Virus record (IMG/VR): IMGVR_UViG_3300025030_000016
Span: 1-62,233 of that record
DNA length: 62,233 nucleotides
Origin: a virus
Lineage: Duplodnaviria; Caudoviricetes
Strand: one strand, 5' to 3'
Shown: positions 1 to 58,185 of the stretch, piece by piece
How the letters are laid out: each line of letters starts with the position of its first letter
How positions within the stretch are numbered: position 1 is the stretch's first letter
Position numbers and translations under genes: made by a program
Notes under the pieces: model-generated
Database searches by the model: none
What the model saw: only the letters and a program-made list of their open reading frames with translations
What the model was told of the DNA's origin: nothing

Positions 1-127
1 CAGCGGTCCACGTTCGAGGAGCTGAGCGACTGCACCAGTCTGTCCGGATTCAGATACTGGTAGGTCGTCGCGCCGCTCGGGTATTTCGTGACGCTGCAGT
101 TGGCGCTAGACCCCGTCACGTTGAAGG
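1..127. repeat. Terminal direct repeat (copy 1), assembly circularisation overlap
   Basis: Identical to 62107-62233; 127 bp is a common assembler k-mer size; it falls inside a CDS that reads through the junction. Confidence 0.95.
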
Positions 128-4181: not shown

Positions 4182-4191
4182 GGGCGCTCCT

Positions 4192-5637
4192 TTAAATGTA
4201 TCGTTTGGTCACTACCGGCACGACTTTCAGCGACAAGACGGTGAATCGGCAGCCGTCGACGTTGGAGATCTTGAACTGCCAGTTGGTCCCCTTGACTCCG
4301 ATCGGGAGCTTGGCCCGCAGACGCCTGAGGCCGTTACCGATCTGGTGCGGACCCGTGAAGGGGAGATCGGCTGAAACCTCCTCCTCGTCCACGAACAGGT
4401 CCAGGGTCATCTCCCCCTCGGTGCGGACGTGCAGGTAGGCGTGGGAGCAGATCTTTCGCTGCGGCTGACCGAAGTCGGCCACAGGGGTCACGGCGAAGGC
4501 TTCCACCAGAGTCCCGTCGTAGTCGGTCTCGCCTTCCAGGAGCATCACACCGTCGGCGTTGGCCCCGTAGCTCTGCGTCCCGATCTGGAAGAAGCCCTGG
4601 TAGTCGAAGCTGGTGTATCTGCTGTGTGCGCCGTTGCCCAGGTTCACCACGACCCCCTCGCCGGAGATGCTGGCGAGATACTGCTGGTCGTCGCCGTTCT
4701 TGCGGCAGAGCGCCGCGGCGCTCGTCCCGCTCGGGATGCTTACCTTCTCGGCACTGAGGTTCGTACAGCTCCCCTCTGAGGTGCCGACGAAGACGCCGTT
4801 GGGGGAGAGCCATGCGGCGCCGACTTCGCCCTTCTCGCCTACAGGGACCGCCACAGCCGAGCCGTAGATAACCTTGAAAGAGGTGAGGCGCTTCTGCTTG
4901 AAGCCTATGCCATCACTTCGCAGGAAGTAGGCGGCCTGCTCGGTGCCGACGAAGAGACCCTCGTTCACCGCCTTGACCATAGTGACCGGCGCGGAGAAAC
5001 CCGCGACCACGTTGTAGCGGATGTCCATGGCCTCTACATTGAAGGTCTTGGTGCGGAAGATGAAGTTGTCTACCGCCAGGTAGAGCGCGCCGTTGTAGAA
5101 CTCAAGGCAGCGCCCCGCGAAGGTGGCGAGCTTGAAGGCGTCGATCTCCATGTTGCTCTCGGCCTGATCGGCACCCGCAGGGTAGGTGAGCTTGACCCAG
5201 GTCTCCAGGTCCAGGATGTCGGTCTCCTCCCCCGGGGAGCTCACCACATAGGGGATGCCCTCGGAGAGGTAACCGATGGTGGCGTTGTCGCTGAACACCG
5301 TGATATCATTCACCTGGACGAACTCGGTGACGTCGGCCATGGTAGGGGAGTTACCCACCGGCAAGAGCGTGCCGTCGATCAGTCGGTTGATGACCTGATT
5401 GGCGATGCAGAAGGTGTCGGTGCCGTTACCCCATGCAGAGGTGACATCGGCGGGGGTGACCAGCGTGGAGCCTTCGCGGCGGGTCAGGTTGAAGTCGTCG
5501 TCCACGTCGCAGTTCACGATGTCGACGCAGCCGGTGTAGGCGCGGTCCTGGAGGTACTTGGAGGTGTCGGGAGTCCCCACGCTGGCCGGGTCACTGACGT
5601 TGTCCATGCCGCCGAAGGTGAAGTTCGATACCGCCAT
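4192..5637 (-). CDS. Tail nozzle/tube protein (P22 gp10 / T7 gp12-like position)
   Basis: 481 aa, beta-rich; N-terminal FGGMDN...NCDVD...RREG; follows the adaptor. Confidence 0.65.
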   Translation of the reverse strand: MAVSNFTFGGMDNVSDPASVGTPDTSKYLQDRAYTGCVDIVNCDVDDDFNLTRREGSTLVTPADVTSAWGNGTDTFCIANQVINRLIDGTLLPVGNSPTMADVTEFVQVNDITVFSDNATIGYLSEGIPYVVSSPGEETDILDLETWVKLTYPAGADQAESNMEIDAFKLATFAGRCLEFYNGALYLAVDNFIFRTKTFNVEAMDIRYNVVAGFSAPVTMVKAVNEGLFVGTEQAAYFLRSDGIGFKQKRLTSFKVIYGSAVAVPVGEKGEVGAAWLSPNGVFVGTSEGSCTNLSAEKVSIPSGTSAAALCRKNGDDQQYLASISGEGVVVNLGNGAHSRYTSFDYQGFFQIGTQSYGANADGVMLLEGETDYDGTLVEAFAVTPVADFGQPQRKICSHAYLHVRTEGEMTLDLFVDEEEVSADLPFTGPHQIGNGLRRLRAKLPIGVKGTNWQFKISNVDGCRFTVLSLKVVPVVTKRYI

Positions 5638-6661: not shown

Positions 6662-6973
6662 TTAAACGAGATTGGCGTCCTTCAGGACGTTGTAGATTTG
6701 CTTCGATACCTTCTGCGAGCCTTTGGCGAGGTGCTGCAGGCTTCCGTTGATCTGGACCGGTACAGCGTCGAACAGGTTGACCTCGAAAAGTTCTTCAGGT
6801 TCGGGTTCGGGTTCGGGTTCGGGTTCGGGTTCGGGTTCGGGTTCGGGTTCGGGTTCGGGTTCGGGTTCGGGTTCGGGTTCGCCGCCCAGAAGACCGAGAT
6901 TCTTCAGGTGCTGCTCGACGGTGATCCCTGTCTCGACCTCAACCTTCGGCTCCGCTTTCTTTCTCTTCGCCAT
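6662..6973 (-). CDS. Hypothetical protein with (EP)14 linker
   Basis: Coupled to the upstream gene (TAATG); fits the operon. Confidence 0.7.
   Translation of the reverse strand: MAKRKKAEPKVEVETGITVEQHLKNLGLLGGEPEPEPEPEPEPEPEPEPEPEPEPEPEPEELFEVNLFDAVPVQINGSLQHLAKGSQKVSKQIYNVLKDANLV
6798..6881. repeat. Perfect hexamer tandem repeat (GGTTCG)x14
   Basis: Read directly; encodes Glu-Pro on the minus strand. Confidence 0.95.
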
Positions 6974-8906: not shown

Positions 8907-9797
8907 TTATGCTGCCACTTTCTTGGATGCCGCATCCCATGCGGACTCGAAATCCTGCGGGTCGGGTTCCGTGGTGACCGAGGTGCGCGAGCCGGTCGGG
9001 GGCTCCATCTTCTTCAGCTTGGCGAGGCGCTCGGCCTCGGCCTTCTCCGCTGCCGCTTTCACCGCAGGGTCCACCGTCTTGCCGGTGGCGGTCTTGAAGT
9101 CGGTCAGGAACTCTGCCACCTCCGCCGCACTGCCGTGGTCCAGAACATGGTTCATGGCGGGGCGCAGGTAGGCGGGCTGCTTCTCGATCCAGGCCTCCAC
9201 GGCCGGGATGATCTCGTAGGCATCGGGGTGCGCCGCCTTCAGCGCGGTCTCGAACTGGACCTGGGTCTGCGCGGCGGTGGCCGCCACTACCGGAGCTATC
9301 TGCGCCTGGAGCGGCTCCAGAATCTTGGCGAACTCAGCCTTCAGGCTCTTGGCCTGCTTCTCCAGCAGGGTGTTGATCGCCAGCGCGTGGCTGCCCCAGT
9401 TCTTCTCCAGATCAGCGAGGGCTTCCTTGACCTCGGGGGAGTCTTCCTCCTCGGCTGCGGGTGCCTCCGGTTTCTTCTCAGGCTCGGCGGGCTTCAGGGC
9501 TTCGGCGATCGCCTTGGCGATCTCGGCGGCGCTGGCCGCAGGAGGGGGGGCCGCTTTCGCCGCTTCTTCTGCGGCTTTTAATTCTTCTGCGGCTTTTGCT
9601 TCAGCGGCTTCGGCTTCCTCGCGCGCCTTTGCCTCGTCGGTGGCAGCGGCTTTCGCTTCGTCGGTCTCGTCGGCGTCGTCGGTGGCAGCCTCCGCAGAAC
9701 GGGTGGCGTCTCCCTCTTTCGGCTCGACGAACGAATCGAACGCCGCACTGAAAGCATCATCCCCCAGCAATTCCGTTACCGAAGTCTCCTCGTCCAC
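8907..9797 (-). CDS. Scaffolding protein
   Basis: Acidic Ala/Glu coiled coil between portal and MCP; AHPD and DFESAWD motifs. Confidence 0.75.
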   Translation of the reverse strand: MDEETSVTELLGDDAFSAAFDSFVEPKEGDATRSAEAATDDADETDEAKAAATDEAKAREEAEAAEAKAAEELKAAEEAAKAAPPPAASAAEIAKAIAEALKPAEPEKKPEAPAAEEEDSPEVKEALADLEKNWGSHALAINTLLEKQAKSLKAEFAKILEPLQAQIAPVVAATAAQTQVQFETALKAAHPDAYEIIPAVEAWIEKQPAYLRPAMNHVLDHGSAAEVAEFLTDFKTATGKTVDPAVKAAAEKAEAERLAKLKKMEPPTGSRTSVTTEPDPQDFESAWDAASKKVAA

Positions 9798-9851
9798 CTG
9801 GCCCTCCCTTAGAAAATGAGTATGTGTAACCTCTTAAATATATTGCGGGTG

Positions 9852-9881
9852 AGTGTATTCCATACTCAGCGTGTAAGTCAA
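9852..9881 (-). promoter_or_regulatory. sigma70-type promoter for the scaffold/capsid genes
   Basis: TTGACT-18-TACACT in an AT-rich gap. Confidence 0.55.
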
Positions 9882-9905
9882 GTGTAAAATTACATATTTC
9901 AGGTC

Positions 9906-10151
9906 TCAGTGCTTAAATAATTCAATGAGTTCCTTCAAGGCCCTCGCCTCCCCCTGCTCCTTGGCCCCGCTCCCCTCCTTGGCGAGGGATTCCTTGACCA
10001 CCTCGCGGCGCAGCACCAGCAGGTTGAAGAGCGCCTCGCCCACGTCGCTATTTGGCAGCCGCTCCTTTAGCAGCTTTACCAGCTCCTGCTCCTGTTTCTT
10101 TTGGTTCTGAAGCTCTGAGAAGTAGGTCGACCGATTGTAGGGCTGAAGCAT
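9906..10151 (-). CDS. Small head-module protein overlapping the portal 3' end
   Basis: RBS AAGGAG 7 nt before ATG 10151; QGEARALKELI motif typical of the small gene after podovirus portals. Confidence 0.65.
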   Translation of the reverse strand: MLQPYNRSTYFSELQNQKKQEQELVKLLKERLPNSDVGEALFNLLVLRREVVKESLAKEGSGAKEQGEARALKELIELFKH

Positions 10152-12129
10152 CTTTGACTCCTTTGGCTGCCGCCAGGTTGTGTACCGTCTTGGAGTGGAT
10201 CTCCGCCGCCTTGGCCTCTACCAGCGCCACGATCTCCTCGGCGGAGGCCTGCGCCTTCTGCGCGTCGGCACTCTGCTTGGCGGCCTTGCTCTGGTCCAGA
10301 CCCTGCTGGATCTGCGCCGCCTGCGCCTGCTGCTGGTCGAAAGCCGCCAGCGCCGCCTCGGCCTCCTTACCGGTCTTCACCAGGCGTCTAGGCAGGTCGC
10401 GGGACAGGAACTCCTCGATCAGGAACTCATCCTCGTTGATCAGCACCATCTGGCGCGGGGTCAGGGTGGTCTTCAGTTGAGCCAGCGCAGCGCCCCGGAC
10501 TTCCTTGGCGACCAGGGAGAGGTTCCCTTTGGGGAGCACGCTGAAGTCCCCCTTGATGTCCTGCTTCGGGTTGAGCTCCATGTTCCACGCCACCAGCGAA
10601 CCGATCAGGGATTTGACGAAGCGGTCGAAGGAGCGCACGTCGTCCTTGGTCACCATGTCGCCGCCGGAGGCCATCATGCTCATGTTGTTGGAGGTCCGGA
10701 ACGCCTCGCCCAGGGGCTGCGCGTTACCCATGCGCCAGGAGGGGAGGTTCGACTCGACATCGAAGACCTCCAGCACCGTCTTTCGCAGCTCCAGAAGCTC
10801 GGAGATGTGCGAGGGGATGTCCACGGAGCGCACCGCGGGGTAGTTCGCCTCGGCGCCTTCGCCGTGGCGGAACACGGTCATACCACCCGTTATCGGCTGC
10901 CCCTGGCTCTCCACTTCGAGGAGGTCGTTGTTCACCTCCACGATAGGCCTGCTGGCGGAAGCCATGTTGTCCATGGTGCAGCGGTCGATGGCGCAGAGCT
11001 TCATCTGCGAGTCCCTCAGGATCTCGACCTTGGCGGTGCCGGTGAGCGGGCCGTCCTCGTCCTCCTCGGGGATGAAGACGTGGAACATGTCGGAGACCTT
11101 CTCGCCGAAGGGTGCGGTGTCGGCCTTGATCACGGTGTTGTCCAGGAGCCACACGTCGGCCAGGATGTCCTTCTGGAGCGCCGACTCGGGGATCTCGACG
11201 CCGATCTCCTTCAGATCCTTGGCCGAGACGAAGCCGTAGTAGCGGATGATCTCGTACTGCCTGCTCATGTGGGGGGCGCTGGTGCTGATATGCTTGATCT
11301 CGTTCAACTCGCTCTCGAAGCTGCGCGCCTTGTAGTTCCCCCCCTGCGAGTTGGCAAGGTAGGTCTTGATCTCGGAACCTATGAAATTGTCGTCGGCGAT
11401 CAGGCTGGAGAGGCGGTGCTTGGGCAGCACCTTCCGGACGAAGAGACCTTCCTGATCCTCCCACCTCATGGCGGTCAGGTCGGGATAGACGTCCCACGCC
11501 TTCTGAGGCTCGTAGTAGGGGCGCTTCACCGGGGTGGAGACAGCGACGTAGTTGCCGCTTTGGTCCGGTTTCCACTCGCGGGAGGTGGTCGAGTAGACCA
11601 GAGGACCCTCGGCGACACCGAAACCGTAGATGCCGCCCCGGCGCACTACCTTCTTGCAGAGTTCCGGATAGTCCAGCTTGGAGTCGGCCAGCTGGTCCTC
11701 CATCTCAAGCTCCATGCGCGCTGCACGCTGCTTGGCGAAAGCCTTGACCGCCTCCTCGATCATCTCGGAGGTGACCGGCGTGCCGGCTTCGGCCTGCTGC
11801 TCGTTCAGCGTGGAGATGATCGTCTCCAGATCCTGAAGGGCGATGTTGGGGAAGGGGGTCGGCTCCAGCCCCCAGTTCTTCTCCTGGGCCGGGAACATCA
11901 TCTCCATCATCTTGGCGACCCAGCCCACGAGTTTTGTGTGGGTGTCCTTGGGGTAGACCCTGGAGCGCCCCTCGGGGATCTTGACCTCGGAGTCGTAGAC
12001 CGCCTTGTACTGGCGCAGGTTCTTCAGCCACTGGATCTCCAGCTCGCGGCGCTCGGATTCATAGGTATCGAAACGCTTGCGGAGGCTCAGCCCCAGCTGC
12101 TCCAGTTTCTCTTTGTTCTGGACGATCAT
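10048..12129 (-). CDS. Portal protein
   Basis: ~693 aa following terL; WLKNLRQYKAVY, RSRVYPK, IYGFGVAEGP, WDVYPD; RBS GGAGG before ATG 12129. Confidence 0.88.
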   Translation of the reverse strand: MIVQNKEKLEQLGLSLRKRFDTYESERRELEIQWLKNLRQYKAVYDSEVKIPEGRSRVYPKDTHTKLVGWVAKMMEMMFPAQEKNWGLEPTPFPNIALQDLETIISTLNEQQAEAGTPVTSEMIEEAVKAFAKQRAARMELEMEDQLADSKLDYPELCKKVVRRGGIYGFGVAEGPLVYSTTSREWKPDQSGNYVAVSTPVKRPYYEPQKAWDVYPDLTAMRWEDQEGLFVRKVLPKHRLSSLIADDNFIGSEIKTYLANSQGGNYKARSFESELNEIKHISTSAPHMSRQYEIIRYYGFVSAKDLKEIGVEIPESALQKDILADVWLLDNTVIKADTAPFGEKVSDMFHVFIPEEDEDGPLTGTAKVEILRDSQMKLCAIDRCTMDNMASASRPIVEVNNDLLEVESQGQPITGGMTVFRHGEGAEANYPAVRSVDIPSHISELLELRKTVLEVFDVESNLPSWRMGNAQPLGEAFRTSNNMSMMASGGDMVTKDDVRSFDRFVKSLIGSLVAWNMELNPKQDIKGDFSVLPKGNLSLVAKEVRGAALAQLKTTLTPRQMVLINEDEFLIEEFLSRDLPRRLVKTGKEAEAALAAFDQQQAQAAQIQQGLDQSKAAKQSADAQKAQASAEEIVALVEAKAAEIHSKTVHNLAAAKGVKDASALQSVDLLLRASEPKETGAGAGKAAKGAAAK

Positions 12130-12248
12130 TGAAACCACCTCCACACCGAAATAGCTGCCATGCCTGCCAGACCTAGTATGACCAGCGCAACCCCGCCGGT
12201 CATTTCGACACGTTTGTCGCCGTCTTTAGATGAGATGGTGATAACCAT
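12126..12248 (-). CDS. 40-aa single-TM protein between terL and portal
   Basis: RBS GGAGG; MVITISSKDGDKRVEMTGGVALVILGLAGMAAISVWRWFQ; stop overlaps the portal ATG. Confidence 0.55.
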   Translation of the reverse strand: MVITISSKDGDKRVEMTGGVALVILGLAGMAAISVWRWFQ

Positions 12249-12260
12249 TGAATCCTCCGT

Positions 12261-13718
12261 TTAGTATCCTGCATAGCCGTCGGCAGGGCGGGGGGCGCGA
12301 GCCCTGGCGGTGCTGCGCTCGTCGCGCCGGTAGTCCGAGGCGTTGTAATCCTTGCCTAGCGCGAAGCCGGTGCCGTACTGGTCCGCCTCCACAACATGCG
12401 ACCAGCGGTTCTTCTCCGGGGTGTCCTTGACCTGCCCTGCGGAGCCTTTCAGCCTCGCGTAGCGGTACTTGCTCCGGAGCCCCTCGACGCACATGCGGCA
12501 CTCGACGTCGTACTCGATCCCGGGCTCCCCGTCGGGCCACCAGTTCCTGAACGGCTCGTCCAGGTGGTTGATGCGGGAGATCGGGTCGTTGGTCTTGGCG
12601 GGGCGCACCTTGTTGCCGCTTCCCGGCTTCTTCGTCACGTACTGCAGCTTCAGTTCCTTGTAGGTCGAGTTGTCGTCCCCGTCACCCTGTCGGGTCCATG
12701 AGGGGTCGCCCACGAAGACCAGCGGGTTGGTGCGGAAGTAAGTGTTCACGATCGGGTTCAGCTTCTGCTCGATGAAGGTCCGCATCCCCATGTCGAAACC
12801 GACCGCCTCGCGCAGCTTTCTAAGCTTGCCGTCGTGACCTACCTGCATGAAGACCATGGCCGGGTTCCTCGCCCCGTCCACCCCTACGATGATCGGGAGG
12901 TGCGGGTCGATGCGCAGGTTCGCCCTGACCCTGCGGTCGTACTGGAAGGAGAGCTCGTAGACCGGCTTCCCTGACATGCTCTTCGCGTAGCGGCCGTGGA
13001 CGTAGACCTCGATCCAGTCGGACCGCTTGCCCTTGGAGAGTTCCTCGTAGTAGCCCGGCCGCAGGTTCTCTTTGTTCTCTGCCTCGGGGGAGAGTCCGGA
13101 GGGCTGCTTGAAAACGTCCACGTCGATGATCGAGTTGTCGTTCCCCTCCTCCTGCGGCAGATGCTCCAGGAGCTTGTAATGGTCGGAGTCGGTCTCCGGG
13201 GGGTTCGTGGTGTAGATGATCCCCGAGCGGTAACGGAACCCCGCCGCCTGCGACGGGTAGCGTCCGGTTCGCCCTTCAAGGTCGGAGAGGAGCTGCACGG
13301 GTACCTCACGTGCCTCCTCAACCCAGGTCCAGGACACCTGGAGGGAAAGAACCCTCTGCACGTCCTCGGGGGAGTCCAAGGCCCTGAAGAGCCAGTCGCT
13401 CTCGATGTCGTGGAACTTGAAGCGCATGATCTGGTCCTGCTCGCGCCACTTGTAGATTTCGACCGGGAGCAGCTCCAGCACCGAGGCGAGCGTGGTGTCC
13501 TTCAGCTGCTGCTTCGTGTTCCTGATGATCAGCATCTTGGAGCGCCGGATGCCGTCGGCGCCGGGAGTCATGAGGATGCTCTGCCGCAGAAGCTCCACGA
13601 TGGCTGCCGTGGTCTTGCCGCCGCCGACCGGCCCCATGAGGGCGCGCATCTTAGCCTCCGAGAGCATGAACTCCCTGCAGGTCTTGGACGGCGTATAGTT
13701 CAAACCCCCGACTGCCAT
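12261..13718 (-). CDS. terL: Terminase large subunit
   Basis: Walker A GPVGGGKT, Walker B WVEEARE, TTNPP coupling motif, nuclease GVDG...GDPS...SHVVEADQY. Confidence 0.92.
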   Translation of the reverse strand: MAVGGLNYTPSKTCREFMLSEAKMRALMGPVGGGKTTAAIVELLRQSILMTPGADGIRRSKMLIIRNTKQQLKDTTLASVLELLPVEIYKWREQDQIMRFKFHDIESDWLFRALDSPEDVQRVLSLQVSWTWVEEAREVPVQLLSDLEGRTGRYPSQAAGFRYRSGIIYTTNPPETDSDHYKLLEHLPQEEGNDNSIIDVDVFKQPSGLSPEAENKENLRPGYYEELSKGKRSDWIEVYVHGRYAKSMSGKPVYELSFQYDRRVRANLRIDPHLPIIVGVDGARNPAMVFMQVGHDGKLRKLREAVGFDMGMRTFIEQKLNPIVNTYFRTNPLVFVGDPSWTRQGDGDDNSTYKELKLQYVTKKPGSGNKVRPAKTNDPISRINHLDEPFRNWWPDGEPGIEYDVECRMCVEGLRSKYRYARLKGSAGQVKDTPEKNRWSHVVEADQYGTGFALGKDYNASDYRRDERSTARARAPRPADGYAGY

Positions 13719-14248: not shown

Positions 14249-14418
14249 CTCGCCGCCTCCTCGTTCTTCTGCCGGCAGTTCCGGCACTCGACAGGGTTAC
14301 GCTTGGCGCACTCCTGGACGTTGTTGCCGTGGACGCAGTGACCCATGGCGTAGGAGCAGTAGGCTCCGCCTCGGGTGCCATAACTTTCCAGCATCTTGAC
14401 ACGCTCGCTGTCTTCCAT
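14245..14418 (-). CDS. Small Cys/His-rich protein
   Basis: MEDSERV...CSYAMGHCVH...C...CRNC; coupled start and stop. Confidence 0.5.
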   Translation of the reverse strand: MEDSERVKMLESYGTRGGAYCSYAMGHCVHGNNVQECAKRNPVECRNCRQKNEEAAR

Positions 14419-14657
14419 TACCTGGCCGCCTCCTTTGCGATCTCGGCTGTCCTGCCGAGCGCCGCCACTCCTGCCGCCCAGACCTGGCCTACAGGTCCTC
14501 GGTTGTCCACGATCACATTCCCGTCCTGACACTTCCCGTCGCTCTGGCAGTAGACTACGACCTTCCGCCCGTCCGAATACTCGAAAGAGGATCTCCTCGC
14601 CCCCAATCCTACGCAGCTGGGGAGCAGGATTATGAAGGCGAGGAGGAGCCGTTTCAC
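14418..14657 (-). CDS. Lipoprotein, possible spanin component
   Basis: GTG start overlapping the amidase stop; KRLLLAFIILLPSC lipobox-like. Confidence 0.55.
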   Translation of the reverse strand: MKRLLLAFIILLPSCVGLGARRSSFEYSDGRKVVVYCQSDGKCQDGNVIVDNRGPVGQVWAAGVAALGRTAEIAKEAAR

Positions 14658-15142
14658 GCCCGTACCTTTTCCATGAACTTCGCCCACGGGAATAGTTTGC
14701 CCGGGCAGCTCTTGGCCGCGAAGTCGTGGTGCCGGTGTACTGTGTCGGCGGAGAGCTTGAACCTTTTCAGATAGTTCGCCGTGACGGTTGCCGCGAGCGA
14801 GAGCATCGCGTCGTCGGGCGGTGCCAGGTCGAAGTTCCCCACCAGGCAGATCCCGATATGGTCGTTCTTCCCGACGCAGTGCGCCCCGTACTTGGACAGG
14901 TCGCGGCCCGTCATGAGCGTGAGCACGCCGTTCACCCTCTCGATCCCTGCATGGTAGCCGATGTCGGACCAGGGCGACTCCAGCCCTCGGGCTCCCGCCG
15001 CCTGCAGCGTTATGAAGCGATCCTTGGTGACCACCTCGCCGTGGTGCCTGTAAGAGGTGTGGAATTTCCGGATGCCCTCCCAGTCGACGGTCTTGCCGTC
15101 CTTGGTGAGCGAGTGGTGGATGACGATCCCTTGTGGGGTCAT
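14654..15142 (-). CDS. Endolysin, N-acetylmuramoyl-L-alanine amidase (Amidase_2, T7 lysozyme-like)
   Basis: IVIHHS, WSDIGYH, GAHC, IGICLVGNF, H...KSCPG Zn-ligand pattern. Confidence 0.9.
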   Translation of the reverse strand: MTPQGIVIHHSLTKDGKTVDWEGIRKFHTSYRHHGEVVTKDRFITLQAAGARGLESPWSDIGYHAGIERVNGVLTLMTGRDLSKYGAHCVGKNDHIGICLVGNFDLAPPDDAMLSLAATVTANYLKRFKLSADTVHRHHDFAAKSCPGKLFPWAKFMEKVRA

Positions 15143-15270
15143 GGCTTAGCTCCTTGAGGCGCCTGCATGGTGGCGGACACCCCGATCAGGAAGACGTTGG
15201 CGTCCCGCCGCTTAGGTGCGGCGCAGGCGGCGAGGGCGAGACAGAGAGCCGCGATCACCGCCCGGGTCAT
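15139..15270 (-). CDS. 43-aa lipoprotein (possible o-spanin)
   Basis: MTRAVIAALCLALAAC with LAAC lipobox; TAATG coupling. Confidence 0.6.
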   Translation of the reverse strand: MTRAVIAALCLALAACAAPKRRDANVFLIGVSATMQAPQGAKP

Positions 15271-15758
15271 TACTGCACCCTCACGATGGCGTTGGTCGCG
15301 TCGGCGGTCGGGAAGGTGACGGTCAGGGTTCCGGCGCTGGGCTGCACGGCGGAGGCCAGGTTCCCCACGTAGATGGCCGGGTCGCCCACCACGGTGTCGT
15401 TGTAGATGATCACGCACTTGGCTGCGGAGGTGAAGGTGACGCCGGCCGCCACCTCGTCGGCGAAGTCGATCCAGGCGGTGGTGCCACTTGAGTTGCTGGC
15501 CCGGGTGTCCAGGGTGTAGCCTCCGGCGGTGTAGCCGGTGCCGCTCACCTCGTTGGTCGCCGAGTAGGCCGTGGTCGCCGCCCCGTAGGTCGCCGTGTCG
15601 GTGTAGAAGGCGATCTTGTAGGTGTTGGCGGCGAGATGCACGCCATCCAGGAACTCCTTCTTTGCCGAGGTCGGGAAGGCGGTGGTGCAGGCGGCGAAAC
15701 CATTGGCGCCGAATGCGAGGACGATGAGTACTGCGAGAAAGAGGTGCGCTTTTTTCAT
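15270..15758 (-). CDS. Fibre-associated structural-family protein with N-terminal signal peptide
   Basis: RBS AAGGAG; MKKAHLFLAVLIVLAFGANGFA then KKEFLDGVH...YKIAFYT...TTAYSATNEVSGTGYTAGG. Confidence 0.75.
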   Translation of the reverse strand: MKKAHLFLAVLIVLAFGANGFAACTTAFPTSAKKEFLDGVHLAANTYKIAFYTDTATYGAATTAYSATNEVSGTGYTAGGYTLDTRASNSSGTTAWIDFADEVAAGVTFTSAAKCVIIYNDTVVGDPAIYVGNLASAVQPSAGTLTVTFPTADATNAIVRVQ

Positions 15759-15771
15759 GGTGAGGCTCCTT

Positions 15772-17277
15772 TTAGATCTGATTTCCGCTGGCATCGTAAA
15801 ATGTAACTGCGGCGCCTCCGGCGCTCTTGAATGCCGCGGCGCTGCCTTGGCTGTCTTTCAGGGCGGAGATAGTGATGGTCACACTGTCGCTCACGGGGTC
15901 CGATACATTCCCCGCTGCGTCCTTGGCCCATGCGTAGAGGGTTTTGCTCCCCTCAGCGGTGAAGACGTACTCTGTCGGTGGCGTGGCACTCCACGCCAAC
16001 ATAGCGGATTTGGCTGTGCCTCCTGCACCGTCAGTAGTCACATTGCTAAAATCGGCAAGCGGGGCGACGTTGTTCTCGGTGAGGAGAAATCCATCTGCTG
16101 CTACATTGTCCGTTGCAGATACGGTGAGGGCTACGGTCAGGCTATTTGATGTTGCAGGCATACTGAAAGTAACTGTCGGCGCAGTGTTGTCAGTTGGTAC
16201 AGGTGCAACAATCCCCCCAGCATCATACTGGTAGATCACCCCTTCCGTGTATCCTGTGCGGCAACTCTCCGGGTATCCCGCCGTTGCTATGCCGGAGTAC
16301 CAGAGCCTCATGGTCATGGTGCCGCTTGCTGCAGTCAGTATGAAGCCTGACCTGTAAATACCGATGTCGTCCCAACTGCCAGCGACAGGAGCAAGTACCG
16401 CCGTGGGTGCCAGAGGGTAGCTGATTGCGGTCGGATCGGACAGGTTGACAGCGGCGTGTACCAATACCTGACCAACAAGCCAGTTTGCCGGTCTCGGCGT
16501 CACAATCGCGTTGACAAGTAAATCTATCTGTCCCGAAATCACCGGATTTGCAAATGCCGTGATGTGGTTGGGCTCAAATCCTGGATAGGCCGCTGTGAAT
16601 TCGGCCACCGTGCCTAGATATTGAGTCGTACCCCACGTAATGCCGTCCGTTGATGTGTGGTAGGTGATGCGTAAGTAGTTAGCACCCTTAACAGCGTTGG
16701 CGTCCTGCACCACTCCGAACATGTGCCAACTGTCGGCAGCAGTGCGTACCACGGCGGGGGAGTTGGCGTAAAGCACCTTGCTCACCCACGGCATGACGCA
16801 AGAGGGAGCGGATAACACCCCCGCGTTAGAATACGTCCGCCGCATGACGCCGGGGCCGGGGTTTACCGTGCCGCTATAGTCGGCAACTATCGTCTCATCC
16901 GTCCTGACCCAATAACATACGATTTGGTCGCCTACAGAGTCATAGAGGATTTCAGCATCCTCTGCCACCGGGCCTATGATTCCGTCAACGTCCTCGAACC
17001 ACGAAACGTCATCCATCCAGAACTGTAATGCCCAATCGACATTATCGTTCGACGCGTAAACAACAGGGTTTTCTGGCACGATGGTGGTCATGCCTAGCCA
17101 GTAGCGATATCCCCGCCACTGGTTGATTGGGTTGCCGGAAAGGTCGTTTACCAGCGTGAAGTCGATTACGGTGTGATGTACGCTCTGGATGTCCGATTGT
17201 GCGGAAGTGCCGTAATTGGGGTGATCCGGATTGATGGAAGCAATCCACGATACCGCGTTCTGGAGTATGGTTGTCAT
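15772..17277 (-). CDS. Glycoside-hydrolase-like beta-propeller protein with C-terminal Ig-like repeat
   Basis: ENPVVYASND, NSPAVV, Asp-box STDGITW, WDDIGIYRS, LWYSG; C-terminal SKTLYAWAKDAAGNVS. Confidence 0.7.
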   Translation of the reverse strand: MTTILQNAVSWIASINPDHPNYGTSAQSDIQSVHHTVIDFTLVNDLSGNPINQWRGYRYWLGMTTIVPENPVVYASNDNVDWALQFWMDDVSWFEDVDGIIGPVAEDAEILYDSVGDQIVCYWVRTDETIVADYSGTVNPGPGVMRRTYSNAGVLSAPSCVMPWVSKVLYANSPAVVRTAADSWHMFGVVQDANAVKGANYLRITYHTSTDGITWGTTQYLGTVAEFTAAYPGFEPNHITAFANPVISGQIDLLVNAIVTPRPANWLVGQVLVHAAVNLSDPTAISYPLAPTAVLAPVAGSWDDIGIYRSGFILTAASGTMTMRLWYSGIATAGYPESCRTGYTEGVIYQYDAGGIVAPVPTDNTAPTVTFSMPATSNSLTVALTVSATDNVAADGFLLTENNVAPLADFSNVTTDGAGGTAKSAMLAWSATPPTEYVFTAEGSKTLYAWAKDAAGNVSDPVSDSVTITISALKDSQGSAAAFKSAGGAAVTFYDASGNQI

Positions 17278-17286
17278 GTCAACTCC

Positions 17287-18693
17287 TTACGGTATCGGGA
17301 TGGAAATATCGTCAATCCAGCCGCCGCCGCCTATGCTCGATATTGAGATCATGATTGTCGTACCGGTCGCAGCAGTGACGGGTACAGTAAACTGGTACCA
17401 TGTCCCGTTGGAATATGTTCCCCCCAGTGGCTGAGTTAGCTTGTTAACTCCGCCCACATAGACATGCAACGTCCCAGCATCCAGTGATCCCGTATCGCAC
17501 TTGTACCAGAACGTCATATCCCCTGCGGCAATGTCCATAGTACGGGACATCGCGCCAGATCCAGACGTGTCGCCGTCACCGCCGCCGAGATTCCATGATG
17601 GGGCACTGGTCTTGCCTGTGATGGTAGCCACATGTGACGCACCGCCAGTTCCATCCGTGCTTGCCGTCCAATCATCGAACGTGGTAGCTCCGTTGGGTGC
17701 GCCGTCTAAGCCGGTAGTGTATGTGCTGCCGGATGCTGCTGCGGCTACGACAAGCGTGCCGACCGCACCAGCTCCGGAGATCCCTGCGAGGGGGACAGTC
17801 CCGTCCGTTGCGTCGGACGCAGTCAAGGTGCCGATGTCTCCGGTCGCAGCTGCGCCGGCCAAGGTGACCGCCCCGTCTCCGGCGACCGTCAGGGCTCCGA
17901 CCGCACCGTCTGCGGAGACGCCTGTCAGGAGGATGTCCCCCGCTCCGCTGGCCGAAGCGACCAGGTCTCCGACGGCGCCTGCGCCGTAGACTCCCGTAAG
18001 GGAGAGCGTCCCGCCTGCAGCCATGGTGAGCGTGCCGACCGCGCCCGTGCCGTTGACCCCGGTGAGCGATGCCGTGGCTGACCCCGCCTCGATCAGGCTG
18101 GCATCATAGCAGAAGATGTAGCTCGCGTTGATGCCGCGGCTGGTGTACTGCGACACCTCCGAGGCCATGGTGGTCTGCCAGCCCGCCCCGCAGCCGGTGG
18201 GGGAGGCGAGGAAAACGGCAGAGTGGGTCGTGATCGGGGGAACCGAGGTGAACCTGCTGTCGTTTCCCGCCGCGACCGTGCCGGCGGTCGTGCCGACACC
18301 CAAGGCTGCAGCTGCGCCCAAGGTGGGGAGGTTGTTCAGGGCGTTATAGTCGGTGGTGCCGGAAGCTCCAGCCGGTCCTTGAGGACCTTCGGGTCCGGTC
18401 GGCCCTGTTGCCCCCTGAATACCTTGAACCCCCTGCGGACCCTGTGGTCCGGTGGGTCCTTGAGGTCCTGCCGGTCCTTGAGGTCCTTCAATCAGGACCC
18501 CGCCGTCACCCGCGATGAAGGCGTGCTCGTAGACCCCTGCGGCGGAGTCGTAGACCAGAGCCTTGCCGTTGTCGCCGGAGGTGGGCGCCAGCACCCGCTT
18601 CCCGTTCAGCTTCCCTGCGTCGGTGAGAAGCGGCGCGGCCTGGGCGAGGCTTGCGGCCAGAAGGAGTGCAACTGTGAGGGCGAACTTTCTCAT
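17287..18693 (-). CDS. Collagen-like fibre protein with signal peptide and Gly-rich beta repeats
   Basis: ATG 18693 (ATGA overlap, RBS GGGAGA); MRKFALTVALLLAASLAQA; 15 GXY triplets; 5 LxGxxxxGxxGxL repeats; C-terminal lectin-like domain. Confidence 0.8.
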   Translation of the reverse strand: MRKFALTVALLLAASLAQAAPLLTDAGKLNGKRVLAPTSGDNGKALVYDSAAGVYEHAFIAGDGGVLIEGPQGPAGPQGPTGPQGPQGVQGIQGATGPTGPEGPQGPAGASGTTDYNALNNLPTLGAAAALGVGTTAGTVAAGNDSRFTSVPPITTHSAVFLASPTGCGAGWQTTMASEVSQYTSRGINASYIFCYDASLIEAGSATASLTGVNGTGAVGTLTMAAGGTLSLTGVYGAGAVGDLVASASGAGDILLTGVSADGAVGALTVAGDGAVTLAGAAATGDIGTLTASDATDGTVPLAGISGAGAVGTLVVAAAASGSTYTTGLDGAPNGATTFDDWTASTDGTGGASHVATITGKTSAPSWNLGGGDGDTSGSGAMSRTMDIAAGDMTFWYKCDTGSLDAGTLHVYVGGVNKLTQPLGGTYSNGTWYQFTVPVTAATGTTIMISISSIGGGGWIDDISIPIP

Positions 18694-19118
18694 ATGATCT
18701 CCCAGCCCAGAGTGAGCCCCTCCAGGGACTGCCCCTCGACCATCTCCACAGGGTTCCCGTCGGCGTCTGTCAGGGTCGGCACGATGTACCTGTTCCCGAT
18801 CTTGATACTCCCCACGGTGGGGCCTGCCAAGGTCGCGTTGTCGCCCAAGTAAGCGGCGAACTGTTTCTCGGCGTCGGCTGTGACCCGTATCGTCTTCAAC
18901 CCCCACTGCGCGATCTTGATATGGTAGACCACCCCCTGCAGAAGGGTGAGCGACCAGGCGCCGTTCTCGTCGGTCACGTCGGTGAGCGTCAAGGCCTGGG
19001 TGTCCACCGTCGCATCGTCGATGTGCTGCTCGGGGAGAGGCATCGCCTTCACGGCGCGGCCGGCAAGCGGCACTCCCGCTCCTGACAGGTGAATCCCGGT
19101 GAGGGTCTGCAGGTTCAT
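18690..19118 (-). CDS. Stand-alone fibre anchor-like domain protein
   Basis: TDENGAWSLTL resembles TDVDGQFAVDL of the tailspike N-terminus. Confidence 0.6.
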   Translation of the reverse strand: MNLQTLTGIHLSGAGVPLAGRAVKAMPLPEQHIDDATVDTQALTLTDVTDENGAWSLTLLQGVVYHIKIAQWGLKTIRVTADAEKQFAAYLGDNATLAGPTVGSIKIGNRYIVPTLTDADGNPVEMVEGQSLEGLTLGWEII

Positions 19119-20893
19119 GGATACCTCGCGGAAAGCCGCTCGATCTCGGTCTTTGGATCAGGGTGCTGAACTGTTGCGATAAAGGGGATATTGCCCGCAA
19201 AATGGTTAGCGTTGTTCATTGCCCCGATCTGGTAACTTGCCGGTATCACGGCATCCAACAGGCTCGTTGCGTCGGTCGTTTCCGCCCATGCCGACCATTC
19301 GCCGCCATCCTCCTTAACCCTGATACCCATGCCCGCAGCCGACTGGTACGCTTGAAACTCGAACGCGGTTCCCGACGCGTGAGTATATGTGGCAACCGGC
19401 CCTGCAAACGCTCCCGCCACCACCTTGTAAAACCGCACCTGGGTAGCGTTCATGTAAACTTCCAGAAGGTTGCTTGCGTCCGAACGGGCCGACCAGAGGT
19501 TAACGGTTGCCTGCCCCGTTGCGGAAGGGACGCAGCGACCCCACACGGCGAAATTGTTGGGCCGGAGAACGTTTGCAGTGGAGCGGGTGTAATTGGTGGA
19601 TGCTGCCGCGCTGTTCTTGTATCCAAGATACGCGGCTGCGTATTTGAAAATATTTCCTTTTCGCGTCCGAAGTGCCAGGGCATCCCATATAGGCACGGCA
19701 GTGGGCGCTAATGCCATTGCTGCTGCTTCTGCGATATAAATGTTCCCTAGCTGGTTGGGGTGTATCCCATCGCCGGAACTGTAGGCCGTCCTGAGGTTGA
19801 TGCCGTCCCGTAATGCATCGTAAATGTTGACCAGCGGTATGTTCTGGGACGCGCTATACGTTACAAGCCACTCGTTATATTCCTCAATCCATAACTGCCT
19901 TGTCGCCGTCCACGATGCGTGGTCACCTATCGGCGGAAGATTGAACAGAACCACAGCTATTCCGTTGGATTGGGCGGAATCCACCATTTCCTGCAGTTTC
20001 GTCTGCATGGTCGCAACCGGCGACGATGACGCGCCGAGAATGTCATTTATCCCTCCTTCGATGACTACCGATGATGGCGTATTGTCCAGTACATCGGCCT
20101 GCCATCTCAGCGCCATAGCGGATAGCGTGTTTCCGCCGACTCCCTTATCCAAGATGGAGACTCCCCATATACGGTCTAAGGCACTAGGTATCCAACTGTC
20201 ATCTCGCGCCCCGCCTGTAAGAGAGTCGCCTATTGCCACGCAATCCGTAAACACCCCGCCGTCAGCGTGAGGATATACGCTCATTGATGCGCTTGATGTT
20301 GTCCCTATTGACTCCATTAAAGCCCTGGTTGCGTTGGAGATGAGCACGGCGCGATGCACATTTACCGTTACGGGGTAAGCCCCGCCCCCATTACCGCCGA
20401 TGCGGACCCTTACGCTTGTGGTCCCAACTGGGGGGGTCCATGTCACGCTGTACCACGTAGGGTTCGCAGCAAGTGCAATATTGACCTTGCTGCTGGTGAA
20501 CCCTGGCAGTTCCATCATCGTAATGGCTGTGCGATCCCCTTCCGTGCCTGACATCTGGACAAAGAATATGTGCTGCGTGGTCGGCGCATCGCTCACTACT
20601 GTGTTTTGCATGAACGATGTGATGTCGCCTATGGTGAGCGATGCCCCCTCATTTTTGACAGCGGCACCGGAAAGCGTCCATGCTGCGTTGCTGATATCGT
20701 CCGAATAGGTCAATAGGTTCTTCACCATCCGCGAGCCCTGCACGGGTAGCACGTTGGCCGGAACGCTGCGGCTAGCCTCGATATAGTCATCCACGGCCTG
20801 CGCAGAACCGGAATAAGTGCCATCAGTGTTGAAACCGTTGAAGAGGTCGGTAACGGTGGCCCTGGCCCTCTGTCTCCCCCCGAAGCCCAGCAT
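19115..20893 (-). CDS. Tail-associated SGNH/GDSL hydrolase (putative deacetylase) flanked by CBM/LamG-like domains
   Basis: GDSLTG, GVGGN, GGIND, DGIHPN blocks; KNLLTYSDD...W CBM-type start. Confidence 0.85.
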   Translation of the reverse strand: MLGFGGRQRARATVTDLFNGFNTDGTYSGSAQAVDDYIEASRSVPANVLPVQGSRMVKNLLTYSDDISNAAWTLSGAAVKNEGASLTIGDITSFMQNTVVSDAPTTQHIFFVQMSGTEGDRTAITMMELPGFTSSKVNIALAANPTWYSVTWTPPVGTTSVRVRIGGNGGGAYPVTVNVHRAVLISNATRALMESIGTTSSASMSVYPHADGGVFTDCVAIGDSLTGGARDDSWIPSALDRIWGVSILDKGVGGNTLSAMALRWQADVLDNTPSSVVIEGGINDILGASSSPVATMQTKLQEMVDSAQSNGIAVVLFNLPPIGDHASWTATRQLWIEEYNEWLVTYSASQNIPLVNIYDALRDGINLRTAYSSGDGIHPNQLGNIYIAEAAAMALAPTAVPIWDALALRTRKGNIFKYAAAYLGYKNSAAASTNYTRSTANVLRPNNFAVWGRCVPSATGQATVNLWSARSDASNLLEVYMNATQVRFYKVVAGAFAGPVATYTHASGTAFEFQAYQSAAGMGIRVKEDGGEWSAWAETTDATSLLDAVIPASYQIGAMNNANHFAGNIPFIATVQHPDPKTEIERLSARYP

Positions 20894-21223: not shown

Positions 21224-21658
21224 TCAGCCTGCGAACTCTCTCCAGAGGCTCAGAAGGCGGGTCAGGAAGCCCATCTTGTCGATCAGCCAGAGCAGGAAGA
21301 AACTGCCGGCGAGCGCGGGGGTGACCAGCTGCAGCTTGACGTCGGTCCAGAATTTCTTCTTCTCCTCCACGACCGCCTCGGCCCCCTCTTCCTTCGCCAC
21401 CTTTTTCTCCAGCTCGGCCACTTTCAACTCGACCCGCTCCAGCCGGTCCTGATCGTTCACGCGATGAAACACCTCGCGCAGGTCCAGGTCATGCTTATCC
21501 AACCGTTTCTCATGCTGCGCCACGATCGCCCCCTGCTCTGCTATATGCTCCAGAGCCACTGCGGTCCTCTCGCCATGCGCGTCAAGACGGCGCAGGGTCT
21601 CTTTTATCTGCTCGAAGGTCTGGGTCTGCGAACATTCCGCAAGGGAGGTGTGGGTCAT
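21224..21658 (-). CDS. Coiled-coil protein with C-terminal TM helix, putative holin-like
   Basis: RBS GGAGG before ATG 21658; XhlA-like architecture. Confidence 0.5.
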   Translation of the reverse strand: MTHTSLAECSQTQTFEQIKETLRRLDAHGERTAVALEHIAEQGAIVAQHEKRLDKHDLDLREVFHRVNDQDRLERVELKVAELEKKVAKEEGAEAVVEEKKKFWTDVKLQLVTPALAGSFFLLWLIDKMGFLTRLLSLWREFAG

Positions 21659-21680
21659 GGGCGGAGCCTCCGGCATTGAA

Positions 21681-22142
21681 TTACAGATTGATTTGTGCAG
21701 GCGCTTTCTGGCGCATGAGATGTTGGCGGTTCGCCTCTGTGGAGCACGCTCTGTGGTGATGCACCGATGGTTTCTTCTTGTATATGTACATATTCTCAGG
21801 GGCATCCCACTTCCCGCAGTAAGGGCATTTAAGCCAATCCTCGTGTCCGCACGCTTTTAGCGCTCGCAGCCTTACATGTATCTGTTTGTGTTCGCTCTCG
21901 TTCTCGCAAACAAGTAAATTCTCAGGAGCGTTGTTCTGGCGGTTCTCATCTATGTGATGGACTACTGCTCCGGGCGGCAGGTATGCCCCTAGCTGTCGCT
22001 CCGCCACCAGAATGTGCTCCATCACTCGCCCGTTTTTGTTGGCTCGGGGGTGTTCAGGCGCTTTAATCATGATGTAGCCGTAAGAGGTTAGGTTGCGCCC
22101 TCCTGCCCACCTGGGATTTTTGTCGCCTGTCCACCGCCCCAT
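21681..22142 (-). CDS. HNH endonuclease
   Basis: VMEHILV...VVHHIDENRQNNAPENL...H. Confidence 0.85.
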   Translation of the reverse strand: MGRWTGDKNPRWAGGRNLTSYGYIMIKAPEHPRANKNGRVMEHILVAERQLGAYLPPGAVVHHIDENRQNNAPENLLVCENESEHKQIHVRLRALKACGHEDWLKCPYCGKWDAPENMYIYKKKPSVHHHRACSTEANRQHLMRQKAPAQINL

Positions 22143-25349: not shown

Positions 25350-25559
25350 TATATTTTCAGGAAAATTTTAGCCGTATAATTCTAAGGTAATGTAGAGGGT
25401 CCGGGGGCCGTTGACTTTATCCCCCCAACGGGGGGTGAGCCTTTTCGCCGCGAAGCGGCTACTCATAAGCCTTCGGCGCGACAGCGCCTGTTACTTACGG
25501 CGAGCCGTTAACCGCGAAGCGGTCGCGGCAAAATCGTTTCGTGCGGTCTCCTGGAACCG

Positions 25560-25679
25560 CGAAGGGACGAAGGGACGAAGGGACGAAGGGACGAAGGGAC
25601 GAAGGGACGAAGGGACGAAGGGACGAAGGGACGAAGGGACGAAGGGACGAAGGGACGAAGGGACGAAGGGACGAAGGGA
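25560..25679. repeat. Perfect octamer tandem repeat (CGAAGGGA)x15
   Basis: Read directly; intergenic. Confidence 0.95.
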
Positions 25680-25688
25680 AGCGGACGC

Positions 25689-25717
25689 AAAAAAGCCCGG
25701 GCTGGTAGCTCCCGGGC
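25689..25717 (-). terminator. Terminator of the early minus-strand cluster
   Basis: GCCCGGG/CCCGGGC stem followed by T6 on the minus strand. Confidence 0.75.
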
Positions 25718-32173: not shown

Positions 32174-32178
32174 GAGGA

Positions 32179-32215
32179 TAAAGTTCTTGACACCGCCTCA
32201 AGACTCCCGTATAAA
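32179..32215 (+). promoter_or_regulatory. Promoter of the DNA polymerase gene
   Basis: TAAAGTTCTTGACA-17-TATAAA. Confidence 0.75.
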
Positions 32216-32249
32216 GAACTGAACAATAAGTTAGAAAGAGGTAAGGACC

Positions 32250-42010: not shown

Positions 42011-42050
42011 GTTGTTAACAATTGAATTACGAACTTCAAAGGAGGAACAG

Positions 42051-58175: not shown

Positions 58176-58185
58176 AGGCCTCTCC

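Follow-up and report, generated by a model that had tools for sequence, protein, structure and literature searches.

Predicted signal peptides on both partners of a candidate chain-like fiber beside the lysis genes of a tailed-phage genome

Three fiber genes and the leaders on two of them

We analyzed the complete virus record IMGVR_UViG_3300025030_000016 (Caudoviricetes; 62,233 bases, here called the window), in which three minus-strand genes, P0001, P0003, and P0002 in the order of their transcription, take up positions 15270 to 18693. The initial annotation of this DNA had proposed that the first and last of them, a protein with collagen-like and Gly-rich repeats (P0001) and a small fiber subunit (P0002), carry Sec signal peptides and form a co-exported appendage. 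The three genes lie in a fiber-lysis gene run on the minus strand that comprises, along transcription, genes for a 592-amino-acid (aa) SGNH protein, a 142-aa protein, P0001, P0003, P0002, a 43-aa lipoprotein, an amidase, and a 79-aa lipoprotein. Stops and starts overlap or almost touch throughout the run, and promoter and terminator scans inside it gave no match beyond chance.

P0001 (468 aa; 17287 to 18693, minus strand) reads, by its domains, as a mosaic "rope" protein in which the leader is followed by about 45 residues, a collagen-like stretch, a middle domain with two cysteines (C168 and C195), five repeats, and a C-terminal domain. The collagen-like G-X-Y stretch (residues ~70 to 114; 18352 to 18486, minus strand) matches PF01391 over residues 70 to 113 (E = 1.5e-7; 31.5 bits versus a cutoff of 27.2). 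The five Gly-rich repeats of ~22 to 24 aa, which are of the L-T-G-V-x-G-x-G-A-V-G type and are predicted docking sites (residues ~203 to 325; 17719 to 18087, minus strand), have units starting at approximately residues 208, 230, 254, 276, and 300. They are also visible in the DNA (repeat family D5, 138-nt spacing), and many leaderless proteins have similar repeats, L-T-G-V-S-G-T-G-A-V-G-T-L. Searches with P0001 found no match by tblastn against phage records and no relative among viral contigs. Its C-terminal domain (residues ~330 to 468; 17290 to 17706, minus strand), defined by sequence homology and read by us as a putative beta-rich receptor-binding tip, does recur: residues ~302 to 468 (316 to 468 in contig L268) are found at 36 to 40% identity at the ends of leaderless proteins of 459 to 873 aa. 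Homologues of this domain lie in nine other viral contigs (L262 to L269 and L271), upstream of genes matching P0003, and in L262 to L269 the domain-bearing gene directly adjoins the P0003 homologue. The domain is also present in the protein P0126.

P0003 (501 aa; 15772 to 17277, minus strand), the gene between, has no leader. By eye it contains an Asp-box-like S-T-D-G-I-T-W-G motif and an Ig-like C-terminal part, and domain and family scans assigned it to no family. It is a conserved downstream neighbor of the P0001-type C-terminal domain, and a word-index search for its homologues returned 6 proteins, all of them leaderless. One homologue, P0220 (positions 3947 to 5449 of the 75.9-kb contig L269), ends in a single TGV-type motif (L-L-T-G-V-S-T-V-T-S-V-G); the amidase encoded after it and that of the window are 69% identical. 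The two-partner module of the initial annotation therefore needs qualification, since P0001 and P0002 are predicted partners as proposed, and a third gene, leaderless in the window, lies between them.

The N termini of P0001 and P0002 both have a basic n-region, an uncharged hydrophobic core, and a small-x-Ala site. The predicted signal peptide of P0001 (residues 1 to 19; 18637 to 18693, minus strand), called by a heuristic, has the n-region MRK and an A-Q-A site before A-P, while that of P0002 (residues 1 to 22; 15693 to 15758, minus strand), called by the heuristic and by conservation in its clade, has the n-region MKK and a G-F-A site before A-C-T. The 9-residue Kyte-Doolittle window means of the cores are 2.79 for P0001 and 3.63 for P0002. 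The ATG of P0001, which shares an ATGA with the stop codon of the 142-aa gene before it, has GGGAG 6 nt upstream, and the ATG of P0002 has AAGGAG 7 nt upstream. The proposal of Sec leaders with good ribosome binding sites on both proteins is thus borne out by core, cleavage site, and Shine-Dalgarno sequence, and, to judge from sequence, both proteins look like substrates of Sec and signal peptidase I; the leader calls are predictions from a home-made heuristic and from conservation. When genes were called greedily across the entire window (69 open reading frames [ORFs]), the only strong leader-like N termini on real-looking genes were those of P0002 and of the lipoprotein at 14418 to 14657. 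The leaders of P0001 and of the 43-aa lipoprotein (15139 to 15270) were recognized by eye, outside the scripted gene call, and all four convincing leader-like N termini of the window are confined to 14.4 to 18.7 kb.

If the leaders were artifacts of wrong starts, or chance hydrophobic N termini, the two proteins would be ordinary cytoplasmic fiber parts. Tailed-phage virions assemble in the cytoplasm, and nothing beyond this general rule speaks for such a reading. The initial annotation had allowed that the true starts might lie downstream of the leaders. Further in-frame starts first appear at codon 34 of P0001 and at codon 40 of P0002, and initiation at these codons would remove conserved sequence; the P0002 codon lies within the conserved domain, into which a start there would cut. 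The strong ribosome binding sites at both ATGs also count against an artifact, as do two features of the P0002 clade described below, a leader kept in 45 diverse proteins on one side of a branch and a clade-specific cysteine pattern, and we give this explanation hardly any credence.

The small subunit and its predicted docking on the rope

P0002 (162 aa; 15270 to 15758, minus strand), with a predicted mature part of residues 23 to 162, is a small fiber monomer of a leader-bearing clade of phrog_644, whose profile it matches with residues 22 to 156 on positions 2 to 141 of 174 (E = 6e-13, 50 bits). Its kin in this family comprise 7889 cluster representatives at E ≤ 0.001 among 8000 scored candidates. 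A tblastn search against 50,697 phage records gave 8 matches, all leaderless and at 33 to 46% identity, and all 8 begin at query residue 21 to 30; in these records the proteins are 145-aa "hypothetical proteins" amid head-tail and fiber genes. We read 259 matches in their loci, and among the matches listed, which also define the locus counts given below, 253 of the 256 loci classified encode leaderless homologues. Scans of viral and metagenome sequences with P0002 and further queries (A2, P0030, and P0012) gave, among the matches listed, almost exclusively leaderless loci. Several apparent full-length matches (L014, L031, L035, L052, L151, L153, L155, and others) were rejected as leaderless genes with a spurious upstream extension, and L224 and L225 were script false positives. 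In alignment A1, the mature A-C-T-T-A of P0002 falls column for column on the leaderless (M)A-I-T-T-A; since A-A-C-T of the leader form is thereby aligned on M-A-I-T of the leaderless form, cleavage after the invariant Ala would recreate the family N terminus. The widespread structural family named in the initial annotation is therefore real, is normally leaderless, and starts exactly at the predicted cleavage point. The TGV-repeat neighbors named with it are real as well and belong to only part of the family, since, by a crude pattern, a downstream neighbor ORF with 3 to 11 TGV-like repeats occurs in 46 of the 193 leaderless loci that have such a neighbor.

The AlphaFold2 model of P0002 has a predicted local distance difference test score (pLDDT) of 86.0. 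A Foldseek search of the model against the PDB gave no match at E ≤ 0.001, and the alignment A1 profile found only a chance nanobody match among PDB sequences (E = 0.55). In an exhaustive VIA search with the model, the top seven rows were all phage tail, neck, or fiber chains, namely 9f4a_AY (Z 11.1, root mean square deviation [rmsd] 2.7, 126 residues aligned), 9d93_Ra (Z 8.3), 8jou_a (Z 7.8, rmsd 3.5, 116 of 136 aligned), 9c39_K (Z 7.2), 9h4p_BD (Z 6.8), 9euf_b (Z 5.5), and 9rkv_A (Z 5.2), with Z values of 7 to 11 being graded "middling" by VIA itself. The chain 8jou_a is 140 aa long and is present in ten copies in its entry, which is that of the Ralstonia podophage GP4. Neither P0002 nor a 141-aa paralogue encoded elsewhere in the window matched PF23140 (Gp80) even at E ≤ 10, in a scan in which a 126-aa protein of phage Rollin scored E = 3.4e-20, and the ESM Atlas returned a PF23140 cluster at a score of 0.82 only, which we treat as a lead. 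On these models, P0002 would work like gp80 of GP4 and belong to the same fold group, yet fall outside PF23140 at the sequence level.

Two copies of P0002 (residues 23 to 162) co-folded with residues 203 to 253 of P0001 gave an ipSAE of 0.85, compared to 0.00 for the best of three controls; the ipSAE mark used is attained by 58 of 80 solved complexes and by 2 of 110 mismatched pairs. At least 81% of the contacts are common to the three runs, and the partner pLDDT is 58 or higher. Both copies of P0002 touch P0001 residues 203 to 228, which make up one repeat, so the suggestion in the initial annotation that the repeats are docking strands for the small subunit gains a predicted complex in which a single repeat holds a P0002 dimer. 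At one dimer per repeat, each rope chain would hold five dimers, as many as are reported for GP4. In the same model, P0002 residues 26 to 28 and 113 to 116 contact the same rope residues, 210 to 213, and C24 and C115 are therefore probably close to each other.

A rope that carries small dimers is a layout already known from solved structures. PMC13730344 and PMC12609058 describe a chain-like fiber in the podophages GP4, VP1, and A1002: in GP4, gp80 is a 140-aa fiber monomer that forms five dimers on a separately encoded rope (PMC13730344, PMC12609058), and in A1002, 11 dimers of gp40/gp41 sit on the nozzle-rope gp39 by beta-sheet augmentation (PMC13730344). In the collar-whisker of the myophages Bas63 and Sf14, as described in PMC12609058, whisker dimers attach to a rope-like extension. 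The rope-and-dimer layout of the pair in the window is thus not novel in itself, and what sets the pair apart from GP4, VP1, and A1002 is its leaders.

The closest likeness is to GP4 (PDB 8JOU), which has a monomer of ~140 aa in the same fold group and a separately encoded rope; the five docking sites of P0001 compare with the five GP4 dimers, and the site in the co-fold takes a dimer. It differs in that P0002 has no PF23140 match, both window proteins have predicted Sec leaders, the cysteine pair is clade specific, and the window rope continues into fused collagen-like and C-terminal parts, with no collar or adaptor partner identified. The Pseudomonas podophage A1002 shares tandem dimers on a rope by beta-sheet augmentation, as its description has it, and the window shares head and packaging genes with Rollin, a phage judged A1002-like by gene sizes and order. 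By the same description, the A1002 rope is part of the nozzle and the whole assembly is cytoplasmic, whereas the window encodes its leader-bearing set away from the tail module. A hint of a leader in the ~30 N-terminal residues of A1002 gp41 that are not seen was considered and dropped, because the 171-aa protein of Rollin, which matches in size, has no hydrophobic N terminus, an argument that holds only if that protein is the gp41 counterpart. The Bas63/Sf14 collar-whisker (PDB 9C39 and 9MT4) shares the fold group (9c39_K, Z 7.2 with P0002 and Z 9.3 with the 141-aa paralogue) and differs in being neck mounted and cytoplasmic, with no leader and no five-repeat array. The phrog_644 proteins of pelagiphage- and roseophage-type podoviruses (CRP-345 gp56 and DSL-LC04, among others) are clear homologues with the length of mature P0002; unlike P0002, they are leaderless, have 0 or 1 Cys, stand in a head-tail/fiber gene order, and are annotated as hypothetical. 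From these comparisons, phrog_644 is likely the family of bead subunits of chain-like fibers, which would give a likely function to a "hypothetical" family of more than 7,800 cluster representatives.

A C-terminal extension of 35 to 60 aa is an additional feature of many leader-bearing small subunits; its W-x-W-L-x-P-x-A-W/Y-A motif continues in a V-x-L-x-G-V-like stretch that resembles the rope docking repeat and could permit head-to-tail self-assembly (examples are L281, 10001 to 10588; L279, 10001 to 10657; L084; L085; P0012; and P0027). By analogy, such subunits might polymerize head to tail without a rope, in a pilus-like manner. P0002 and its four closest relatives are without this extension.

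A leader-bearing branch and its gene neighborhoods

We sampled the 120 best cluster representatives of the 7889 matches, leaving out the fragment P0009, and found that 45 of them are leader bearing and 75 leaderless. A quick maximum likelihood tree built from the mature domains places the two groups on opposite sides of one branch: a single change of the leader label suffices, none of 500 shuffles gave so low a count, and the branch has a Shimodaira-Hasegawa-like approximate likelihood ratio test (SH-aLRT) value of 98; on the leader side, end branches reach up to 1.0 change per column. The scripted small-residue pattern at -3 and -1 is present in 44 of the 45 members of the P0002 clade, as small-x-Ala before [A/T]-C-[T/S], and the 45th is a mis-hit of the regular expression inside the hydrophobic core. 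An alignment of 39 clade sequences has A22, C24, and C115 invariant. The number of Cys residues in the mature domain is 2, 4, or 6 in all 45 leader proteins versus 0 or 1 in 71 of the 75 leaderless ones, and a four-Cys insert is found in 24 of 45 versus 0 of 75. Paired cysteines confined to the leader clade are as expected for proteins that fold in an oxidizing compartment. This branch of bead subunits has kept a predicted Sec leader through deep divergence, has gained paired cysteines, and, as described below, has leader-bearing partners in at least three phage backbones.

The cysteine that follows the cleavage site of P0002 raises the question of whether the N termini are instead lipoprotein signals or remain uncleaved and anchor the proteins in the inner membrane. 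The G-F-A-A-C of P0002 fits the loose PROSITE lipobox rule, and two true lipobox proteins are encoded next door. The lipobox consensus is [LVI][ASTVI][GAS]C, and it fails across the P0002 clade: the residue at -3 before Cys is F, Y, D, Q, H, N, E, W, S, or T rather than the usual L, V, or I, and in one member the Cys is immediately preceded by T (S-F-A-T-C). The invariant Ala at -1 with a small residue at -3 in 44 of 45 members fits signal peptidase I, and P0001 has no Cys near its site. We consider a lipoprotein or anchor reading very improbable.

Leader-positive small subunits with context were found, among the matches listed, in five loci (the window, L164, L085, L279, and L281). L280, whose small subunit is identical to that of L279, stands outside the analysis, and L084 is a sixth locus in which the N terminus of the small subunit is cut by the contig end; L084 and L085 are under 2 kb, and the genes of L279, which has a high GC content, were read strand by strand. 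The closest parallel is L281 (6806 to 10588), in which a rope homologue, a P0003 homologue, and a small subunit follow in the order of the window with a leader on each. The rope homologue (579 aa; BLASTP, 33% identity over 352 aa, E = 3e-20) has five repeats in register with those of P0001. The P0003 homologue (480 aa; BLASTP, 26% over 380 aa, E = 1e-18) aligns from its residue 20, right after the leader, to residue 2 of P0003, and the small subunit has 195 aa. This viral contig also has a 1155-aa ORF that is J-like (tail tip) by eye and a 353-aa tyrosine integrase-like ORF, and the module is followed by a terminator with a 13-bp stem, the sole strong one in the promoter and terminator scans. 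In L279 (10001 to 15238), a leader-bearing small subunit is followed by two leader proteins, the first of 1281 aa with repeat arrays at its two ends and the second of 240 aa. In L164, a contig from a Nitrospiraceae metagenome-assembled genome, the homologue lies within a five-gene run of leader-like N termini (9565 to 13563) beside an endolysin-like gene, and this run includes, by eye, a leader-bearing SGNH hydrolase and a LamG-like protein. A 136-aa protein of L164 that ends in Phe looks by eye like a small outer-membrane barrel. Further leader-like genes lie downstream of the small subunit in L085 (one) and L084 (three).

By a strict heuristic, 6 of 24 same-strand neighbors are leader-like in three leader-positive loci (the window, L164, and L085), compared to 11 of 2185 in the 253 leaderless loci. 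The number of independent loci is small and the heuristic crude, yet the direction of the contrast is clear. The covariation of leaders between partner genes that the initial annotation had named as a check is therefore positive in the few loci with context (L281, L279, and L164, together with the neighbor counts). Cassettes of several leader genes in a row, fiber-like or enzyme-like, occur in other phage backbones at differing genome positions.

Possible fates of an exported fiber and the genome around it

Since both partners have predicted leaders, a fiber part that is normally made inside the cell is probably made outside the cytoplasm here. The chain-like fiber is of a known kind; what is new is a whole branch that appears to have moved, with its partners, to the Sec pathway. 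Solved chain-like fibers fit the rule of all-cytoplasmic assembly, and the leader branch would depart from it. In the scheme that we propose, the fiber and lysis genes would form one tightly packed operon that is expressed late, and P0001 and P0002 would be exported by Sec, with signal peptidase I cutting after A19 and A22, respectively. Oxidative folding beyond the cytoplasm would form a C24-C115 disulfide in P0002 and probably a C168-C195 disulfide in P0001. P0001 would trimerize via its collagen-like stretch, P0002 dimers (each subunit a beta-sandwich of ~140 aa) would load on the repeats by strand augmentation, and the C-terminal domain would form a receptor-binding tip. If the host is diderm, the fiber would wait in the periplasm, and on lysis by the amidase and lipoproteins it would be released and meet the virions built in the cytoplasm. 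We infer the export, the cleavage, the disulfides, the trimerization, and all post-lysis events of this scheme. A Sec-exported, disulfide-bonded chain-like fiber assembled outside the cytoplasm is, taken as a whole chain of steps, a reading that we favor with some reserve, and export alone is likelier than the whole chain.

Several points weigh against this reading. Two products of the operon in the window, P0003 and the SGNH protein, are leaderless and would therefore be kept apart from P0001 and P0002, in another compartment, until lysis. The leader calls come from a home-made heuristic and from conservation, and the leader-positive small-subunit loci with context number just the five named above. 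On the structural side, the Foldseek search was negative, the VIA scores are middling, and PF23140 is missing from both small proteins of the window. The co-fold was run with alignment A1 for P0002 and without an alignment for the rope piece; its pass may stem from likeness to solved chain fibers, and a model of this kind would indicate likeness rather than binding. The proposed C24-C115 disulfide takes the proximity of the two residues from shared contacts only. Finally, the word "periplasm" presumes a diderm host, which is suggested only by the lipoproteins encoded next to the amidase and by the hosts that distant relatives infect.

The first of two fates for an exported fiber is assembly of the virion from two compartments, in which the fiber joins the particles once holin lesions or lysis mix the compartments. 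All domains are of virion-fiber type, the P0001 C-terminal domain is common to leaderless proteins encoded directly upstream of P0003 homologues, and the module shares its transcription unit with late and lysis genes. The L281 module closes a tail operon, after the 1155-aa ORF that is J-like by eye and before the terminator with the 13-bp stem, and a leaderless P0003 would be harmless if the parts meet only after lysis. Against this fate, no collar-binding, nozzle, or virion-anchoring domain was recognized in P0001, though no search aimed at one was made; the tail module already has a leaderless candidate chain-fiber set; the position of the cassette varies between phage backbones; and the 50,697 phage records include no cultured leader-bearing homologue (the 8 that matched were all leaderless), which leaves this fate without proteomic support. 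We regard it as a serious candidate, if less likely than not. The full form of the idea, in which a whole receptor-binding fiber is Sec-exported, disulfide-bonded, assembled in the periplasm, and joined to particles only after holin triggering, is doubtful, and in L281 whole-fiber export may include the associated enzyme-like protein. If true, some tailed phages would assemble their virions by a pathway that spans two compartments.

The other set, in the tail module, consists of a leaderless, small fiber-monomer-like protein of 141 aa (1386 to 1811, minus strand), in the same fold group as P0002, and a tail gene that is a candidate second rope; the 5' part of this gene (1 to 1382, minus strand) crosses the 127-nt terminal repeat and continues at 60942 to 62106. 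The wrap-around gene has seven Gly-rich repeats of ~22 aa at residues 237 to 390 of the ORF, of the (E/D)-G-G-x-x-x-G-G-S type and visible in the DNA as repeat family D4. The 141-aa family aligns with phrog_644 by hhalign (alignment A3; probability 79%, E = 1.5e-5, 60 columns), and A1 against the single 141-aa sequence gave a probability of 0.2. The model of the 141-aa protein (pLDDT 91.2) has the same seven PDB entries on top as P0002, including 9c39_K and 8jou_a (Z 9.3 and 6.8, respectively). From these models, the tail module appears to have its own candidate chain-like fiber set, without leaders.

This second set is among the points that favor the other fate, a virion-independent exported fiber, free or bound to envelope or debris, that might serve as a receptor mask, a decoy, a release aid, or in some other role at the host surface. 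Such a fiber would bind the receptor of the phage itself, whether on the dying cell, on debris, or on neighboring cells. The partner leaders and the extracytoplasmic type of cysteine pattern fit it, as do the variable cassette position and the exported nonvirion neighbors read by eye elsewhere (the barrel-like 136-aa protein, lipoproteins, an SGNH esterase, and a LamG-like protein). Sec alone does not carry a protein across the outer membrane, however, and the vicinity has no secretion system; co-expressed late, the fiber would have little time to act in exclusion, a free receptor-binding fiber could compete with progeny for receptors, and there is no direct evidence of a target. We judge this fate to fall a little short of an even chance, and some other fate after lysis to be unlikely. 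Each of the two fates has a conceptual analogue: the pIII and pVIII proteins of filamentous phages are Sec-routed virion proteins, and Llp of T5 and Cor are exported phage lipoproteins that mask receptors, although all of these are unrelated to the window proteins in sequence, fold, and virion type. In titles and abstracts of the literature, we found no description of signal peptides on tailed-phage fiber or virion proteins, which is no proof that none is in print. Either the addition of a fiber at the time of lysis or a virion-independent fiber would be new phage biology.

The remaining genes of the fiber-lysis run, all on the minus strand, frame the module on both sides. Upstream, the 592-aa protein (19115 to 20893) is a leaderless, fiber-like protein that contains an SGNH/GDSL hydrolase by family search, and the 142-aa protein (18690 to 19118), also leaderless, is CarboxypepD_reg-like at 24.2 bits, which is below the Pfam cutoff of 32.2. 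Downstream, the 43-aa predicted lipoprotein (15139 to 15270) has an L-A-A-C lipobox recognized by eye, and its start overlaps the P0002 stop (TAATG) while its stop overlaps the amidase start (ATGA). The amidase (14654 to 15142) is a predicted N-acetylmuramoyl-L-alanine amidase, or endolysin (PF01510, E = 1.6e-12), and its end is overlapped by the GTG start of the 79-aa predicted lipoprotein (14418 to 14657), which has an L-P-S-C lipobox by eye and was also found by the gene call. Beyond this lipoprotein follow a DUF1353-like protein and then terminase, portal, scaffold, and capsid genes.

The whole series belongs to a long minus-strand block that runs from ~28.7 kb down to position 1 and then from the other end down to 51.6 kb. 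A 127-base repeat at both ends of the window indicates a circular or permuted genome, in which the packaging and head genes appear, from sequence comparison, to be distant kin of proteobacterial podophage genes: TerL has at most 36% identity to its matches in 27 phage records, and in comparison with Pseudomonas phage Rollin the identities are 33% for TerL, 36% for the portal, and 45% for the major capsid protein. Megablast with 20 kb of window sequence retrieved no DNA relative from phage records.

We also made several observations elsewhere in the window. A 2242-aa protein (51657 to 58385, minus strand) matches giant-virion-protein PHROGs (phrog_30335, E = 4.7e-80; DarB-like antirestriction family), with a weak match to virion RNA polymerase and 25% identity over 827 aa to a 2184-aa protein of Rollin. 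Between the capsid and adaptor genes sits a gene for a 103-aa protein (6662 to 6973, minus strand), in which a hexanucleotide repeat at 6782 to 6895 encodes ~15 Glu-Pro pairs. Just upstream of the fiber genes, a 153-aa ORF (21681 to 22142, minus strand) is HNH endonuclease-like by eye and overlaps a 193-aa ORF at 21224 to 21805. An intergenic-looking stretch at 25536 to 25711 holds a perfect tandem array of the 8-nt unit CGAAGGGA in ~16 or more copies. On the plus strand, two 50-nt copies that are 76% identical (32178 to 32227 and 41973 to 42022) contain TTGACA and TATAAA boxes; they precede the plus-strand gene block and are probably repeated early or middle promoters.

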